A stretch of 64,000 nucleotides of DNA from Escherichia phage MLF4. The first letter of the stretch is position 1, and every line of letters starts with the position of its first letter. The notes beneath the pieces were generated by a model. The model had not been told where the DNA came from, searched no databases, and saw only the letters and a list, made by a program, of their open reading frames with translations. Position numbers and translations under genes: made by a program. Of this stretch, positions 53,054 to 63,723 are shown one piece after another. The DNA lies in sequence record NC_055780.1; one strand, given 5' to 3'.

Positions 53054-53762
<709 letters not shown>

Positions 53763-53770
<8 letters not shown>

Positions 53771-53792
53771 ACTGATGAGGTAGTGATACTAT
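53763..53792 (+). promoter_or_regulatory. early promoter with overlapping stem-loop (PeSL-like cassette)
   Basis: GTTTAC at 53763, 18-nt spacer, TACTAT at 53787; inverted repeat TGAGGTA...TACCTCA (53776..53799) spans the -10. Confidence 0.6.
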
Positions 53793-53823
53793 TACCTCAT
53801 CAAAATTAATTAGGAAAAATAAA

Positions 53824-54054
53824 ATGAAAACTTATAAAGAGTTTGCTACAGAAACTATTATCACTGAATCTTCTCATGGTATGGAAGTAAAGCTTGGAAT
53901 GGCTTTAGCTGAAGCTGAGCGTCTTTTCTCTCGTATTAAAGAACTTGCTGCTGCAGTCGATCCTTCGTCTTTTAAAGGAGACCAAACTAAAGTTAAAGCA
54001 CTTTTAGCATTATGCTCTGACGCAGGAGAAATCGCTAAAATGGTTCTAAGATGA
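53824..54054 (+). CDS. internal protein (IPI-locus) with capsid targeting sequence
   Basis: 76 aa; N-terminus MKTYKEFATE fits the T4 internal-protein capsid-targeting consensus MK(T/S)YQEF(I/L)xE with an (L/I/A)-x-E gp21-type cleavage site at residue 10. Confidence 0.7.
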   Translation: MKTYKEFATETIITESSHGMEVKLGMALAEAERLFSRIKELAAAVDPSSFKGDQTKVKALLALCSDAGEIAKMVLR

Positions 54055-54068
54055 AGAAACGATTAGAA

Positions 54069-54100
54069 GATTTAAAATAATTTCACAAAGTTGTTTACAC
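54069..54100 (+). repeat. 32-bp direct repeat copy 2
   Basis: identical to 53739..53770. Confidence 0.85.
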
Positions 54101-54122
54101 GGGGTTTTAGTAGTGATACTAT
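54093..54122 (+). promoter_or_regulatory. early promoter (duplicate cassette)
   Basis: GTTTAC at 54093, 18-nt spacer, TACTAT at 54117. Confidence 0.6.
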
Positions 54123-54150
54123 TACCCTATCAACTACTGAGGAGAATAAA

Positions 54151-55526: not shown

Positions 55527-55625
55527 GAATTATTTGTTATTATTAACTCATACCGCACTGATTAATACCCTCTATCATCAAGGGTTCTTGCTAAAGAGCC
55601 TTTGTTAATAATTGGGAATCATATT

Positions 55626-56234
55626 ATGGATACTAAATTAGCTGAAATTTTTGAAGGAAAACATCCAAATTTTAGTACAGGAAAGCTGAAAGACAAAATA
55701 ATAAAAGAAAATATTTTTCCATATGAGTGTGCAATTTGTAAAATTTCAAAATGGCAAAATAAGCATATTGTTCTGCAATTAGACCATATTGATGGAAATA
55801 ACAAAAATCATCTTAAATCAAATTTAAGATTATTATGTCCAAACTGCCATTCGCAAACTGATACTTTTGCTGGTAAAAATATTAAAAATAATAAAAAGCG
55901 TTATAATGTTAGTGATGAAGAAATTTTAAACGCACTATTAAATTCGGCTACTATATCATCTGCAATTACTTCATTAGGTTTAAGTAAAGGCGGAAACTAT
56001 AAAAGATTCATTAAAATTGCTAATGATAATAAATTATATCATTTACTGGTAAATATTAATGAAAAGATTTTAACTGATGAAATTTACGAAGAATTAGTTA
56101 AAATCGATTATTCTAAATTTGGATGGGTTAGTAAAGCTGCTAAAATAATAGGTATAAGCCCACAAAAAGCTAGAAAATGGATAGAACGAAAGTGTCCAGA
56201 ATTGATAGAACAGTCTTTTTCACGTAATAAATAA
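55626..56234 (+). CDS. freestanding HNH homing endonuclease
   Basis: canonical HNH core IVLQLDHIDGNNKNHLKSNLRLLCPNCHSQTD with CAIC/CPNC zinc ligands; ATG at 55626 (track ORF starts at TTG 55602); immediately upstream of the tRNA cluster. Confidence 0.85.
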   Translation: MDTKLAEIFEGKHPNFSTGKLKDKIIKENIFPYECAICKISKWQNKHIVLQLDHIDGNNKNHLKSNLRLLCPNCHSQTDTFAGKNIKNNKKRYNVSDEEILNALLNSATISSAITSLGLSKGGNYKRFIKIANDNKLYHLLVNINEKILTDEIYEELVKIDYSKFGWVSKAAKIIGISPQKARKWIERKCPELIEQSFSRNK

Positions 56235-56240
56235 TATAGC

Positions 56241-56327
56241 GCGAGAATGGTCAAATTGGTAAAGGCACAGCACTTAAAATGCTGCGGAATTATTTCCTTG
56301 TGGGTTCGAGTCCCACTTCTCGCACCA
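56241..56327 (+). tRNA. tRNA-Leu (anticodon UAA)
   Basis: cloverleaf folded by eye: acceptor GCGAGAA/TTCTCGC, anticodon stem CAGCA/TGCTG with loop CTTAAAA, long variable arm, T-loop GGTTCGAGTCC, CCA encoded. Confidence 0.85.
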
Positions 56328-56332
56328 AATTT

Positions 56333-56406
<74 letters not shown>

Positions 56407-56416
56407 ATTTAATTTA

Positions 56417-56490
56417 CTCCGTGTAGCTCAGTTTGGTAGAGCGCCTGATTTGGGATCAGGAGGTCCAAGGTTCAAATCCTTGTATGGAGA
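56417..56490 (+). tRNA. tRNA-Pro (anticodon UGG)
   Basis: acceptor CTCCGTG/TATGGAG (two G-U), anticodon stem CCTGA/TCAGG loop TTTGGGA, T-loop GGTTCAAATCC; CCA not encoded. Confidence 0.85.
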
Positions 56491-56492
56491 CT

Positions 56493-56582
56493 GGAGGCGT
56501 GGCAGAGTGGTTGAATGCACCGGTCTTGAAAACCGGCAGTCGCTCCGGCGACTCATAGGTTCGAATCCTATCGCCTCCGCCA
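56493..56582 (+). tRNA. tRNA-Ser (anticodon UGA)
   Basis: acceptor GGAGGCG/CGCCTCC, anticodon stem CCGGT/ACCGG loop CTTGAAA, long variable arm, CCA encoded. Confidence 0.85.
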
Positions 56583-56587
56583 GTTTT

Positions 56588-56663
56588 GCTGATTTAGCTC
56601 AGTAGGTAGAGCACCTCACTTGTAATGAGGATGTCGGCGGTTCGATTCCGTCAATCAGCACCA
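56588..56663 (+). tRNA. tRNA-Thr (anticodon UGU)
   Basis: acceptor GCTGATT/AATCAGC, anticodon stem CCTCA/TGAGG loop CTTGTAA, T-loop GGTTCGATTCC, CCA encoded. Confidence 0.85.
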
Positions 56664-56664
56664 A

Positions 56665-56739
56665 GGCCCTGTAGCTGGAAGGTTCAAGCAAGCGACTCAT
56701 AATCGCCAGATGGTGGTTCAATTCCACCCAGGGCCACCA
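56665..56739 (+). tRNA. tRNA-Ile/Met type (anticodon CAU; T4 equivalent reads AUA as Ile)
   Basis: acceptor GGCCCTG/CAGGGCC, anticodon loop CTCATAA, T-loop GGTTCAATTCC, CCA encoded. Confidence 0.8.
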
Positions 56740-56745
56740 AATTAA

Positions 56746-56832
56746 GGGGAGTTATCCCGTAGAGGTAGCGGTGTGGACTGTAAATTCATTGTCATTGCGA
56801 CTCGGGTGGTTCGACTCCATCACTCCCCACCA
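56746..56832 (+). tRNA. tRNA-Tyr (anticodon GUA), class II
   Basis: acceptor GGGGAGT/ACTCCCC, anticodon loop CTGTAAA, variable arm GTCATTGCGAC and 3' end closely parallel bacterial tRNA-Tyr; anticodon stem has two G-U pairs. Confidence 0.75.
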
Positions 56833-56836
56833 ATTT

Positions 56837-56911
56837 GGATGTGTAGCTCAATGGCAGAGCGATCGCCTGTTAAGCGATTGGTTATAGGTTCGAATCCTAT
56901 CACGTCCGCCA
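56837..56911 (+). tRNA. tRNA-Asn (anticodon GUU)
   Basis: acceptor GGATGTG/CACGTCC, anticodon stem ATCGC/GCGAT loop CTGTTAA, T-loop GGTTCGAATCC, CCA encoded. Confidence 0.85.
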
Positions 56912-57025
56912 AATTTGTGACAACTGTCACATTAATATCTACTTGACGCGATTATAGGGGTTGAACTGATCACTCTTCTCTTAATTTCGTGTGAAGACAT
57001 CATGATTGTTGGAGTAGGTATTAAT

Positions 57026-57101
57026 GTGGCCGTAGTTCAGTTGGTAGAACTCGAGATTGTGATTCTCGTAGTCATGGGTTCGACTCCCATCGGTCACCCC
57101 A
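57026..57101 (+). tRNA. tRNA-His (anticodon GUG)
   Basis: acceptor GTGGCCG/CGGTCAC, D-stem GTTC/GAAC, anticodon stem CGAGA/TCTCG loop TTGTGAT, discriminator C, CCA encoded. Confidence 0.85.
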
Positions 57102-57105
57102 ATTA

Positions 57106-57181
57106 CGGGGCATAGCTCAGAAGGAAGAGCAAGGACCTTCTAAGTCCTGGGTCGTAGGTTCGATCCCTACTGCCTCGACCA
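57106..57181 (+). tRNA. tRNA-Arg (anticodon UCU)
   Basis: acceptor CGGGGCA/TGCCTCG, anticodon stem AGGAC/GTCCT loop CTTCTAA, T-loop GGTTCGATCCC, CCA encoded. Confidence 0.85.
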
Positions 57182-57199: not shown

Positions 57200-57550
57200 A
57201 TGAAAGGTAATGTTTATTTAGTAGTTCATGATTTAACATTCTATTTTAATCATAATGATACTGTTATTTCTGAACGTGTAATTAATTTGCTTTATCAGCA
57301 TGCAGATTATGTTTATGTCGAAAACGAATATGGTCATTGGCAATTTCTCAAAAATCGTTCATTTGGTTTAGATGGTTACGAATATTTTGAACGTAAAGAC
57401 CTTTTAGATAAAATTCCGTTATCTACACAATATCAAAATCATAAGTCTTTACATAAATGTCGACTAATTCGAAATGCTGAATCTGCTTATGAAGCAATTG
57501 ATTTATGGCGTTTACGCCGTGAACAGATTGATGCTTTAAAAGAATATTAA
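57200..57550 (+). CDS. hypothetical protein (116 aa)
   Basis: ATG at 57200 with GAGGAA SD directly after tRNA-Arg; no recognisable domain. Confidence 0.55.
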   Translation: MKGNVYLVVHDLTFYFNHNDTVISERVINLLYQHADYVYVENEYGHWQFLKNRSFGLDGYEYFERKDLLDKIPLSTQYQNHKSLHKCRLIRNAESAYEAIDLWRLRREQIDALKEY

Positions 57551-57890
57551 GAAGCCGGGTCGCTACCGGTAAGTCGTCGGACTGATGTTCCCTGAGTAAG
57601 GACTAGCCTTAATAAATCTTTATGTTTTGTTAATGCTCCCTTACATCACAGCAGAAACGGCGCACCGAATTATCGATTCGAGGAAATATCTTTGCCGTAA
57701 GCCGAGTAGCGTTTTTGACGGAACGTTCGGATATGGTCGAGATATGGCCTTTTAAAAATATTGAGTAGCGTCAACTGCTTGATAACCGGGTTCGAATCCC
57801 GGCGTTTCGTACAAACACTTGCCTTAGCAGGTGGAACCCCGACAAGGTTGCCGCAAGGCTTAGCCCCAGCCGAAAGGTTGGGGCTTTTTA
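57551..57890 (+). ncRNA. candidate small stable RNA(s) with tRNA-like T-arm, ending in strong terminator
   Basis: no long ORF in about 340 nt; contains CCGGGTTCGAATCCCGG (T-arm-like) and local hairpins; terminator AGCCCCAGCC-GAAA-GGTTGGGGCT+T5 at 57862..57889; may correspond to the T4 species 1/2 stable RNAs (from memory, unverified). Confidence 0.4.
57862..57889 (+). terminator. intrinsic terminator (10-bp stem, GAAA tetraloop, T-run)
   Basis: AGCCCCAGCC GAAA GGTTGGGGCT TTTT; near-identical module recurs at 58417..58444. Confidence 0.8.
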
Positions 57891-57891
57891 G

Positions 57892-57899
57892 TATAAATA
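57892..57899 (+). promoter_or_regulatory. late promoter TATAAATA (internal protein gene at 57936)
   Basis: TATAAATA 37 nt upstream of ATG, directly after the terminator. Confidence 0.6.
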
Positions 57900-57935
57900 A
57901 GTATATTAAATCTACAAATTAAAACAGGAAATAAG

Positions 57936-58409
57936 ATGAAATCATATACTCAATTTTTAAATGAAGCGGTGTTAAATGAAGCGTCTAGCACCGAAATTCA
58001 AGCTGTCGCAAAAGCAGCCATTGCAGCGGGTAAATATTCCTATAAAGATGCTTCTGATGAATCACGATTCCAATTTGCTCGCGACATGAAAGCAGAAGGA
58101 TTTACGGGGAATGCTGTTAGTATGGCCTGGAAAAGTTTAGTTGCTACTGGCGCTGCTTTTGCAAAGGCTTCGGGTAAACCTGCTCCTAAAGCAGATCCTA
58201 AAGTCACACAAGAGAAAAATATCGTTAAAGGAATTATCTCTAGGTATGAAGCAATTCTTAAAGAGCTTTTAGTAATCAAAACTGAAGGCCAAAAACTAGC
58301 TCGTGCTTATAGTTTCAAAGATAACCCACATGCTCACTCTCTTGAGTATGTTGAAGACATTCAAAAAATTATTAAAGACCGCATTTGGTCTGCTAAACAA
58401 ATCAAATAA
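57936..58409 (+). CDS. internal protein-like (capsid targeting sequence), 157 aa
   Basis: N-terminus MKSYTQFLNEA fits the CTS consensus with L-N-E cleavage motif; Ala/Lys-rich; own late promoter and terminator. Confidence 0.65.
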   Translation: MKSYTQFLNEAVLNEASSTEIQAVAKAAIAAGKYSYKDASDESRFQFARDMKAEGFTGNAVSMAWKSLVATGAAFAKASGKPAPKADPKVTQEKNIVKGIISRYEAILKELLVIKTEGQKLARAYSFKDNPHAHSLEYVEDIQKIIKDRIWSAKQIK

Positions 58410-58416
58410 CATTCTT

Positions 58417-58444
58417 AGCCCTAGCCGAAAGGTTGGGGCTTTTT
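58417..58444 (+). terminator. intrinsic terminator (repeat of the 57862 module)
   Basis: AGCCCTAGCC GAAA GGTTGGGGCT TTTT 8 nt after stop. Confidence 0.8.
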
Positions 58445-58579
58445 GGTATCTAGGCCTTTCCAGGCCTCTCTAGGCATCATTTAGTTTCTACCCTTTATAA
58501 TATATTATCCTATCTTTTAATTGCCCCTCCCTGCCCTAGAATTCCCTAAAACTTTTTAAAAAAATTTTTTCACAAAACG

Positions 58580-58609
58580 GTTTACATCCTTGTCCTTCCA
58601 TGGTACTAT
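58580..58609 (+). promoter_or_regulatory. early promoter (GTTTAC-N18-TACTAT)
   Basis: precedes ATG at 58653; lies inside the 5' extension of track ORF 58590..58916, arguing that ORF really starts at 58653. Confidence 0.55.
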
Positions 58610-58652
58610 ACAACTATCAACTACTGATACAGAAAACAACTTGGAGAATGAA

Positions 58653-58916
58653 ATGGATAATTACGGCGAACTGTTCAACTTCTTTATGAAATGTGTTTCA
58701 GAAGATTTCGGTCGTACAGTGAATGATATTAAAGTTATCGGTCCTGATCATCCGATGTTTGAAACTTACGCAGTAATGGGTAATGAAGACGGTCAGTGGT
58801 ATACTGTAAAGGTTGTGATTAACATGTTCACAGCAGAAGGTTATGTTAAACTGTCTTCTAAAGTTTACCATGATAACGACGAAATCGCAGAAGAATATTT
58901 CAATAATATGAAATAA
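58653..58916 (+). CDS. hypothetical protein (87 aa)
   Basis: ATG at 58653 with GGAG SD 6 nt upstream; track ORF start at 58590 is TTG and overlaps the promoter. Confidence 0.5.
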   Translation: MDNYGELFNFFMKCVSEDFGRTVNDIKVIGPDHPMFETYAVMGNEDGQWYTVKVVINMFTAEGYVKLSSKVYHDNDEIAEEYFNNMK

Positions 58917-61795: not shown

Positions 61796-62764
<969 letters not shown>

Positions 62765-62768
62765 AGTT

Positions 62769-62798
62769 GTTTACTTTCTCCTAGAATTGTGATAGTAT
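62769..62798 (+). promoter_or_regulatory. early promoter (GTTTAC-N18-TAGTAT) for denV
   Basis: GTTTAC 5 nt after lysozyme stop; inverted repeat TGTGA...TCACA around the -10. Confidence 0.55.
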
Positions 62799-62823
62799 AT
62801 TCACAGTTACTTGGAGGGATAAA

Positions 62824-63240
62824 ATGACTCGTATTAATTTGACTTTAGTATCTGAACTTGCTGATCAACATTTAATCGCAGAATACCGTGAATTGCCGCG
62901 TGTTTTTGGTATAGTTCGTAAGCATGTGGCAAACGGTAAGCGCGTTAAAGATTTTAAAATATCTTCCGAGTTTATTTTAGGTTCTGGTCATGTTACGTTC
63001 TTTTACGATAAGTTAGAATTTTTGCGAAAGCGTCAATTAGACATTATAACGGAATGCTTAAAACGCGGGTTCAGTATAAAAGATACTGAAGTTCCTGACA
63101 TCAGCGATATTCCAGTAGAATGGAAAAATGATTATAATCCATGCAAATCAGCTATTAAATTGAGTCAACAACGACTTGATGAAAAAATTTTAATGAAACC
63201 ACATTGGTATAAGTATTACGGTAAAAATATTTACATTTAA
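62824..63240 (+). CDS. denV: endonuclease V (pyrimidine dimer DNA glycosylase)
   Basis: 138 aa; matches recalled T4 endo V ([28 protein letters not shown]...[16 protein letters not shown]...). Confidence 0.95.
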
Positions 63241-63249
63241 AGGAAACCC

Positions 63250-63723
63250 ATGAAAACATATCAAGAATTTATTACTGAAGCAGCTATTAATTCTCAAATT
63301 ATTGCTGAATCTTTTACTGATCTTTTGAAATTTAAAAAAGGTCAAAAAATCACTGCTGTATTGGATGATGGTACAGAAGTTGAGATGGATGTACAGGGAT
63401 ATAATTATGCAGTAGATGGAAAACTGTATAATAAATCTCATGCTAAATTTGATTCATTTGACGACTTTGTTAATACAGTTGAAGATGAAAAAACTCGTCG
63501 ATCCATTGTAACTGGTGATGCTAAGGTTCTTATGGCACATGGTCATGAACGCATTCGCGCTAAACAGAATAAAATGGGTGAAGATAATTTTGCATTAGTT
63601 GGTTATCAATCTGGTAAGCAAACTTATGGCTATCAGCGTACTGCTACCATGTATAATAAAAATGGTAAAATTGCCTTTGTAAATAGTAAAGGTTCTATTC
63701 AGTACGTTAAATCGTTCAAATAA
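63250..63723 (+). CDS. internal protein-like (capsid targeting sequence), 157 aa
   Basis: N-terminus MKTYQEFITEA is a near-perfect T4 internal-protein CTS with I-T-E cleavage motif. Confidence 0.7.
   Translation: MKTYQEFITEAAINSQIIAESFTDLLKFKKGQKITAVLDDGTEVEMDVQGYNYAVDGKLYNKSHAKFDSFDDFVNTVEDEKTRRSIVTGDAKVLMAHGHERIRAKQNKMGEDNFALVGYQSGKQTYGYQRTATMYNKNGKIAFVNSKGSIQYVKSFK

Follow-up and report, generated by a model that had tools for sequence, protein, structure and literature searches.

A phrog_2280 gene of Escherichia phage MLF4 as a candidate internal head protein gene in a repeat-bounded slot between rnaC and e.8

The gene unit and its control elements

We analyzed a 64,000-nt window of the genome of Escherichia phage MLF4 (record NC_055780.1), an MLF4-like Tequatrovirus, and focused on an open reading frame (ORF) of 157 amino acids (aa) at 57936..58409 on the plus strand, between the stable-RNA gene rnaC and gene e.8. 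The ORF, which starts with MKSYTQFLNEAVLNEASS, encodes a member of family phrog_2280 that is a candidate internal head protein and is called IpX here; IpX and, for two relatives introduced below, IpY and IpZ are working names coined in this analysis. A first-pass annotation of this DNA had described a self-contained late module, and a terminator, a late promoter motif, a Shine-Dalgarno sequence, the ORF and a second terminator were all found in that order, while the late expression of the module would follow from its motif and position.

The same annotation had located the ORF correctly and read its product, which begins MKSYTQFLNEA, as Ala/Lys-rich; the composition includes 15.9% Ala and 12.7% Lys, with an isoelectric point (pI) of 9.5. 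The protein is an exact match to the MLF4 protein AYR03753.1, and it matched the phrog_2280 profile with an E-value of 9.3e-60, residues 1–157 lying on profile positions 1–172 of 178. Orthologues were found at 70–96% identity, and remoter relatives occur in Klebsiella, Yersinia and other T4-type phages. The ratio of non-synonymous to synonymous substitution rates (dN/dS) was 0.03–0.11 against eight orthologues (e.g., 42 non-synonymous versus 59 synonymous differences, with dS of ~1.1). On these grounds, the ORF is a real gene. A minus-strand ORF within it (58040-58279, 79 aa) had no support and was treated as spurious.

The gene is flanked by two copies of a 36-nt direct repeat, located on the plus strand at 57859..57894 (copy 1, CTTAGCCCCAGCCGAAAGGTTGGGGCTTTTTAGTAT) and 58414..58449 (copy 2). 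The repeat search gave 94% identity between the copies and a spacing of 555 nt, and the 27-nt core of the repeat occurs only at these two sites in the window and in 0 of 100 shuffles. Each copy holds a plus-strand terminator hairpin. T1 (57862..57889, the hairpin proper at 57862-57885) has a 10-bp stem, a GAAA loop and a run of five T residues and lies at the end of the tRNA/rnaC unit. T2 (58417..58444, the hairpin proper at 58417-58440) has 10 pairs, a GAAA loop and five T residues, and it begins 8 nt past the ORF stop. The first-pass annotation had remarked on this strong terminator right after the ORF and on its near-identity to the one at 57862, both of which were recovered here. Predicted energies were −20.6 kcal/mol for T1 (z −3.8) and −18.3 kcal/mol for T2 (z −4.0) relative to shuffles. 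T1 is homologous to the single stem-loop that follows species 1 RNA in T4, labeled 'pot. terminator' in X03016. Pairing with the constant 3' arm is preserved in all three 5'-arm variants of T1 (CCAGCC, CCGACC and CTAGCC), and a functional RNA stem is supported because the AG and GA variants both keep pairing with TT. An Rfam scan (E<=1) detected only the upstream tRNAs and no RNA element in 57550-58500.

A T4-type late promoter motif, TATAAATA, abuts T1 at 57892..57899 on the plus strand, and its last base lies 37 nt before the ATG at 57936, where the first-pass annotation had placed it. A Shine-Dalgarno sequence, AGGA, was read from the sequence at 57926..57929 (plus strand), 6 nt before the ATG. 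The AT-rich window contains 25 copies of TATAAATA, compared with 10.1 ± 3.5 in shuffles; because the octamer is only ~2.5-fold over chance, the promoter call was based on context. The motif lies directly after the terminator T-run, at a distance of 2–3 bases, in 14 of the 16 alignable loci that carry the unit, and AATAAATA takes its place in the other two. This junction is kept in Tequatrovirus, Dhakavirus WG01 and Klebsiella Jiaodavirus phiKp_22 despite different hairpin sequences; TATAAATA is also present in a Klebsiella Jiaodavirus locus (L017), and the annotators of phage fPS-65 independently labeled the same site 'predicted late promoter'. Since several other TATAAATA sites of the window follow a stem-loop, late units of this phage normally have the arrangement seen at T1 and TATAAATA. 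We infer late expression of the IpX gene from this motif and from the conservation of its position.

Read as a whole, the unit would work as follows. T1, whose structure is evident and whose function is suggested by the annotated potential terminator of T4, would end the tRNA/rnaC transcript, and the abutting TATAAATA would drive gp55/gp33-dependent late transcription. IpX would be translated from the ATG at 57936, and T2 would prevent late transcripts from running into the e.8 early unit.

The leader and packaging into the head

The N-terminus of IpX, MKSYTQFLNE/AVLNE/A (57936..57980, plus strand; slashes mark predicted cleavage), resembles a capsid-targeting sequence (CTS) and has two L-N-E sites of the prohead-protease type. 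In T4 IPIII, the first ten residues suffice to package foreign proteins, with positions 4 and 7 governing targeting and positions 8 and 10 governing processing, and the prohead protease gp21 cleaves after L/I-X-E (PMC9026906). IpX has all four of the residues that matter in IPIII (Y4, F7, L8 and E10), and its protease-type site L8-N9-E10/A11 is repeated as L13-N14-E15/A16, with a small residue after each. We searched the starts of ORFs of at least 50 aa in six frames across the 64 kb with the pattern M..[YF]..F[LIVA].E, which matched exactly three ORFs, IpX, an Ip5-like gene (53824) and Ip4 (63250), and gave matches in 0 of 100 shuffles. The three proteins are exact matches to Escherichia phage MLF4 proteins.

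Ten phrog_2280 members were aligned, with identity down to 23% and, for homologues of other genera, between 23 and 50%. Only M1, F7 and F47 were invariant columns, L8 was nearly invariant, position 4 was always Y or F, and E stood at position 10 or slightly later. As judged from this alignment, constraint on the IpX protein is strongest in its leader. The second LNE/A of IpX arises from a 15-nt tandem duplication, seen in the repeat search as tandem 12-mers, TTAAATGAAGCG, with a spacing of 15 at 57957..57983 (plus strand) that encode LNEA twice, and some homologues are without one copy. IpX, Ip4 and the Ip5-like protein each have two L/I-x-E motifs in their first 20 residues, which suggests stepwise or redundant propeptide removal.

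The first ten residues, through Y4 and F7, would dock IpX into the prohead scaffolding core during assembly. Following the rules from IPIII mutagenesis, gp21 would then cut after L-N-E at residue 10 and/or 15, so the mature N-terminus would be A11 (AVLNEASSTEIQAVAK) or A16 (ASSTEIQAVAK). The mature product would have 142–147 aa, a mass of ~15.5–16 kDa and a pI of 9.5–9.6, compared with 9.3 for IPII and 9.5 for IPIII. This basic product would stay in the head with the DNA, in partial agreement with mass spectrometry of the orthologue in phage fD1. That orthologue, g140 (157 aa, 95.7% nt identity), was flagged PPAP at the strict threshold in liquid chromatography–tandem mass spectrometry of ultracentrifuge-purified particles (PMC8309999 Table S3). 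From the head, IpX would enter the next host together with the DNA.

The AlphaFold (AF2) model of IpX, made with the family alignment, was all helical, with a mean pLDDT of 75.6 and a low-confidence leader. The protein is laid out as a CTS leader (aa 1–10 or 1–15), a helical N-domain (~18–71), a Pro/Ala/Lys linker (~77–90) and a C-terminal helical hairpin (88–154). Pfam gave only a sub-threshold match to Shikimate_dh_N (E 0.12), NCBIfam gave zero matches, and a sequence-profile search of the PDB returned coiled-coil noise only. Foldseek with the AF2 model found nothing in the PDB at E<=0.001 and only the protein's own family in BFVD. In every Tequatrovirus record read, phrog_2280 members are called 'hypothetical protein', and one entry for a remote homologue, in a Klebsiella phage (KPKp), is already named 'Internal head protein'. 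The C-terminal domain occurs in two forms, ...DRIWSAKQIK in IpX and ...TPDLY...GDVGRHYKKL in Klebsiella and Yersinia phages.

Frameshifts recur at an A-run (58215-58219, codon 94) just past ...QEK, where the linker meets the C-domain. In at least four independent homologue clusters (P0006, P0008, P0086 and locus L004 1240-1578), the protein is truncated to 93–112 aa, with the leader and N-domain kept. These truncated homologues could be pseudogenes, homopolymer sequencing errors or a tolerated short form.

Taken together, it is quite likely that the IpX gene encodes a CTS-bearing, packaged internal head protein. The first-pass annotation had proposed such a protein from the L-N-E consensus, and the proposal gained from the Y4/F7/L8/E10 set, the conservation of the leader and the detection of fD1 g140. 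Several points weigh on the other side. The fD1 dataset is permissive, with 113–137 of the phage's 277 proteins and 672 proteins of the host reported, and its particle-associated list includes DenV, lysozyme, NudE and an HNH endonuclease (PMC8309999); because of this permissiveness, the detection of g140 is weak evidence of packaging and supportive only. Cleavage at E10 or E15 is a prediction from the motif. TATAAATA by itself is a weak signal at its ~2.5-fold enrichment, and the fold and sequence searches (Pfam, NCBIfam, PDB and BFVD) point to no function.

We consider it very improbable that IpX is a late cytoplasmic protein that stays unpackaged, its likeness to a CTS being a relic of ip-gene recombination and its detection in fD1 a contamination. 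Many clearly non-structural proteins are indeed on the fD1 particle-associated list, and leaders are exchangeable: the leader of a 205-aa protein of JS98-like phages, MKTYNEFLNESVLNEA, almost matches that of an IpX variant and stands on a different N-domain. However, a relic leader would decay, whereas this one is the best conserved segment across genera, with the rest of the protein at 23–30% identity. Moreover, the first ten residues alone package foreign proteins in T4 (PMC9026906), so a late-made protein carrying them should be packaged, whatever its origin.

Occupancy of the rnaC–e.8 slot

The repeat copies are the left and right boundaries of a 555-bp unit that is absent from T4. In the alignment, T4 had both flanks and a single terminator and was short of exactly one 555-bp repeat unit; the same empty site, ...GGGGCTTTTTGGTATCTAGG..., occurs in T2, T6 and Yersinia phage PST. 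The DNA around the cassette matches hundreds of Tequatrovirus genomes at 95–97%. We queried GenBank phage records, a redundant and biased set, for the flanks using an artificial empty-site sequence. Of these records, 773 contained the flanks and 493 the cassette interior (384 at >=80% identity); for Escherichia phages, the numbers were 549 and 342, respectively. The cassette is thus carried by ~60% of related phage records. These frequencies rest on GenBank because an IMG/VR search baited with e.8 yielded just 10 loci.

Record spans and direct inspection of 20 loci gave five states of the slot. It is empty in T4, T2, T6, PST, Sf24, RB59, KIT06, SV76 and W143, and it holds one cassette in the window, RB68, phiD1/fD1, Kha5h and many others. 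IpX is accompanied by a second CTS gene (a 187-aa ORF, MKTYAEFLTEA..., ~+1230 bp) in fPS-65, G4500 and locus L008, which were inspected, and in HP3 and ES21, for which this state was deduced from +1228-bp spans only. In Dhakavirus WG01 and its relatives, IpX is accompanied by a 184-aa membrane ORF, and in JS98-like phages this membrane ORF stands with the 205-aa CTS protein, which has an IpX-like leader and a different N-domain. A comparison of the locus across T4-like genomes had been suggested in the first-pass annotation, and it revealed a presence/absence polymorphism bounded by the repeated terminator, with zero, one or two cassettes, rather than a universally conserved locus in identical context, as T4, T2, T6 and PST are empty.

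The second cassette in the fPS-65 slot (L004 1720-2440; also L008, L009, L015 and L016) consists of a AATAAATA motif and the 187-aa CTS protein (MKTYAEFLTEAAKLPSEADL..., phrog_2280). The third terminator that comes with it has a different stem and the same ...GGGCTTTTTGGTATCTAGG tail, and in G4500 the gene of the second cassette is split into two ORFs. The 184-aa predicted membrane ORF (MKLLKYLSWVLLVPLDF..., phrog_2143, function unassigned) shares the slot in Dhakavirus and JS98-like phages (L018 2947-3501, WG01; L011–L014). It comes after IpX in some loci and before the 205-aa CTS protein in others, and it has its own TATAAATA in the JS98-like loci.

IpX, IpY (fPS-65 g135c, 187 aa), IpZ (the 205-aa protein of JS98-like phages) and 177-aa proteins of Klebsiella Jiaodavirus all belong to phrog_2280 (E 2e-53 to 6e-60) and share one architecture of CTS leader, helical N-domain, Pro/Ala/Lys linker and C-terminal helical hairpin. 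IpY and IpZ occupy the same rnaC–e.8 slot as IpX, whereas the Jiaodavirus homologue lies downstream of the tRNA cluster. The N-domains of these relatives are swapped or very divergent, with 23–40% identity. IpX and IpY as direct BLAST relatives were rejected, because only the leader aligns; their kinship lies at the profile level, both being in phrog_2280. Diversity in the family takes the form of presence or absence, paralogues in tandem (IpX and IpY), exchange of the N-domain behind a common leader and two C-terminal forms.

The first-pass annotation had read the flanking terminators as the boundaries of an inserted cassette. As boundaries they hold, since the repeats bound the 555-bp indel exactly; insertion is only one possible origin of the unit. 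We regard it as unlikely that the cassette is a recently inserted mobile element whose insertion created the duplication of the terminator. The exact coincidence of the indel edges with the 36-nt repeats would fit such an event, and so would the two-gene unit of Dhakavirus WG01 and its relatives, which lies between a different, near-identical terminator pair, GGCCCTTCCGAAAGGTTGGGC(C), so that the two copies of one genome resemble each other more closely than they do their orthologues in other genera. On the other hand, the 555 bp contain no integrase, homing endonuclease or target-site signature, and recombination between the 36-nt repeats would restore the T4 sequence exactly. The terminator 5'-arm alleles (CCAGCC, CCGACC, CTAGCC and CCTTCC) are mixed between copies 1 and 2 in different phages, a pattern expected from ordinary homologous recombination or gene conversion in mixed infections. 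Tequatrovirus, Dhakavirus and JS98-like phages carry the family between rnaC and e.8, and Jiaodavirus has a member downstream of its tRNA cluster, a distribution that favors old residence followed by losses. Because the family resides in several genera and repeat recombination regenerates the T4 sequence precisely, ancestral presence with precise loss through the repeats would be at least as likely as insertion. The 36-nt repeats with T1 and T2 would then be the points at which units are lost, gained or duplicated by homologous recombination.

This arrangement resembles the PeSL mobile regulatory cassettes of T4-type phages (Arbiol et al. 2010, PMC2839356; Comeau et al. 2014, PMC4122927), in which short stem-loop and promoter repeats flank variable genes, coincide with indels and allow loss or gain by repeat recombination. 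The flanking of an indel applies here as well, as the 555-bp indel is bounded exactly and WG01-type phages have the same layout with their own terminator allele. The promoters differ. A PeSL combines a stem-loop with an early sigma-70-like promoter (a middle promoter in PmSL), whereas the IpX cassette has the late motif TATAAATA at the left copy and an ordinary spacer at the right copy. No −35/−10 pair was found at either 36-nt repeat, and the nearest early-type promoter lies ~135 nt downstream of T2.

The left neighbor of the cassette is rnaC (species 1 RNA; 57672..57810, plus strand), the last gene of the tRNA/stable-RNA unit. Its position was carried over from the RB68 annotation (96.6% identity across 57200-58700), and its T4 counterpart is the homologous rnaC. 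On the right, an early-type promoter, TTTACA-17-TACTAT (58581-58609, plus strand), is followed by gene e.8 (58653-58916, plus strand), and the fPS-65 annotation has a predicted early promoter at the matching place. In window orientation, the upstream order is 57B, the Ip5-like gene (53824), tRNA.x genes, an HNH endonuclease gene, ten tRNAs (56241-57181), a 116-aa ORF (57200-57550), rnaD and rnaC (~57547-57810) and the cassette; the downstream order runs from e.8 (58653) through e (62270) to denV and Ip4 (63250).

Other parts of this region also vary between phages. The 116-aa ORF (phrog_3355, function unassigned) lies between tRNA-Arg and rnaD, with its stop overlapping the start of rnaD; it is absent in T4, T6, PST, PP01, RB59 and fPS-2 and present in T2, RB68 and G4500. 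The HNH endonuclease ORF (210 aa; 55602-56241 region) stops 6 nt before tRNA-Leu, at a place where T4, RB68 and Kha5h have tRNA-Gln. The tRNA array of the window is Leu-Gly-Pro-Ser-Thr-Met-Tyr-Asn-His-Arg, and no remnant of tRNA-Gln or tRNA-Ile was detectable in the window.

Relation to known internal proteins and a possible role in the host

The leader of T4 IPII/IPIII (phrog_7857 and phrog_5341), MKTYQEFIAE/A, is of the same type as that of IpX, MKSYTQFLNE/A. IPII/IPIII and IpX also have in common an L/I-x-E site, a small basic product (pI 9.3–9.5), a late-promoter context and dispensability. Their loci differ, with rnaC–e.8 for IpX and e–denV for ipII/ipIII, and the IpX gene is absent from T4 itself. 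Past the leader, IpX has no homology to IPI, IPII, IPIII or Ip4. BLASTP of IpX against T4 IPIII and Ip4 gave nothing significant, the PHROG families are distinct, and nothing similar follows after residue 11. The Pfam family IPI_T4 matches T4 IPI only, and IpX has no sequence or fold similarity to IPI.

Ip4 (DUF7412, phrog_3155) and the Ip5-like protein (phrog_3499) are CTS-bearing proteins encoded in the same genome as IpX, and the sequences are unrelated. Homology of IpX to Ip4 through their equal length of 157 aa was considered and rejected, the sequences being unrelated and the equal length a coincidence. Many annotations name Ip4 and Ip5 as internal proteins, whereas IpX is annotated as 'hypothetical protein'. 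Unlike IpX, Ip4 has no promoter of its own, and the Ip5-like gene is framed by early-promoter repeats instead of terminators.

At 62270-63723, the order is e, denV and Ip4, and ipIII/ipII, which lie between e and denV in T4, are missing. Ip4 begins 10 nt past the denV stop; having no TATAAATA of its own, it would depend on the late promoters upstream of e (62236 and 62249) or on denV transcription. The Ip5-like gene (53824-54054, MKTYKEFATE/TIITE/S) encodes 76 aa, compared with 85 aa in most relatives. It lies between 69-nt direct repeats (53735-53803 and 54065-54133, 86% identical) that carry TTTACA...TACTAT and form a PeSL-like cassette.

Ip6, Ip7 and Ip9 are annotated at the 57B–tRNA.4 locus and have lengths other than that of IpX. 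Ip4–Ip10 reportedly go back to Repoila et al. 1994. By function, IpX would fall in the Ip class, and by homology it stands outside Ip1–Ip5, the families covered by the comparison; it may yet prove identical with Ip8 or Ip10. In our literature search, no paper was found that names the phrog_2280 family or the rnaC–e.8 site as an ip locus. 'Five IP differences' between PST and T4 are mentioned in PMC4122927; they lie elsewhere, because PST has an empty rnaC–e.8 site. Recent work places the ip genes of T4 in two loci, and the rnaC–e.8 site would be a third Ip hotspot. phrog_2280 is probably a real, previously unnamed T4-type internal-protein family.

T4 Ip1, Ip2 and Ip3 have only the leader in common, and each is an inhibitor of a separate type IV restriction enzyme of the GmrSD type (PMC12373910). 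Ip2 and Ip3 thus act on defined GmrSD enzymes, whereas IpX has no assigned target. By analogy with Ip1–3, its most likely activity would be to neutralize some host defense when the DNA enters the new host. We put this forward tentatively, with rather less than even confidence. Like other Ips, the IpX gene is dispensable and polymorphic, being absent from T4, T2, T6 and PST. Two observations speak against such a role. The strong purifying selection on IpX in Tequatrovirus is not the usual signature of an arms-race effector, the diversity arising instead by presence/absence and domain swapping; and, in the one published screen, ip4–10 of T4-like phages, a set that may or may not include IpX, gave no reproducible inhibition of five newly identified active GmrSD systems (PMC12373910).

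The main alternative to an anti-defense role is a structural or DNA-associated one. IpX would then be a CTS-targeted accessory of the core or of assembly, degraded or retained as fragments like gp22/gp67, or a DNA-associated, charge-neutralizing filler, with no effector role after injection. The basic, Ala/Lys-rich composition with its Pro/Ala/Lys linker would suit such a protein, as would strong purifying selection in place of rapid sequence turnover. Internal L/I/V/M-x-E triplets in the mature region (STE-IQ, LKE-LL, LEY and VED) make further cleavage conceivable, and T4 core proteins are also cleaved by gp21 (PMC9026906). However, the gene is dispensable, as T2, T4, T6 and PST assemble normal heads without it, and the historical view of IPII/IPIII as 'filler' has been replaced by specific anti-restriction roles (PMC12373910). 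We therefore consider a purely structural function improbable.

A broader proposal joins the anti-defense role of IpX to the organization of the slot. The rnaC–e.8 site would be an undescribed third hotspot, in which phrog_2280 proteins serve as modular effectors (leader, swappable N-domain, linker and helical C-domain) against defenses other than those countered by Ip1–3. Units of terminator and late promoter would be shuffled there as the late-gene counterpart of PeSLs. We place this joint proposal slightly on the doubtful side.

The T-even internal proteins are injected inhibitors of type IV restriction, and only Ip1–3 have defined targets (PMC12373910). The IpX family is present in about three-fifths of sequenced T4-like coliphages, and many of these phages are candidates for therapy. 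Although its members carry a packaging signal, annotations list them as 'hypothetical', and their locus is not one of the two recognized ip loci. The family was overlooked because the slot is empty in all three classical phages, T2, T4 and T6. The finding reveals no new kind of mechanism and is a widespread addition to the known Ip class. It also provides a second example, with late promoters, of gene cassettes bounded by regulatory repeats in T4-type genomes. The family is a concrete and easily tested candidate for a new anti-defense activity, and if the proposal of a third effector hotspot is true, IpX, IpY and IpZ would neutralize host defenses beyond the reach of Ip1–3.

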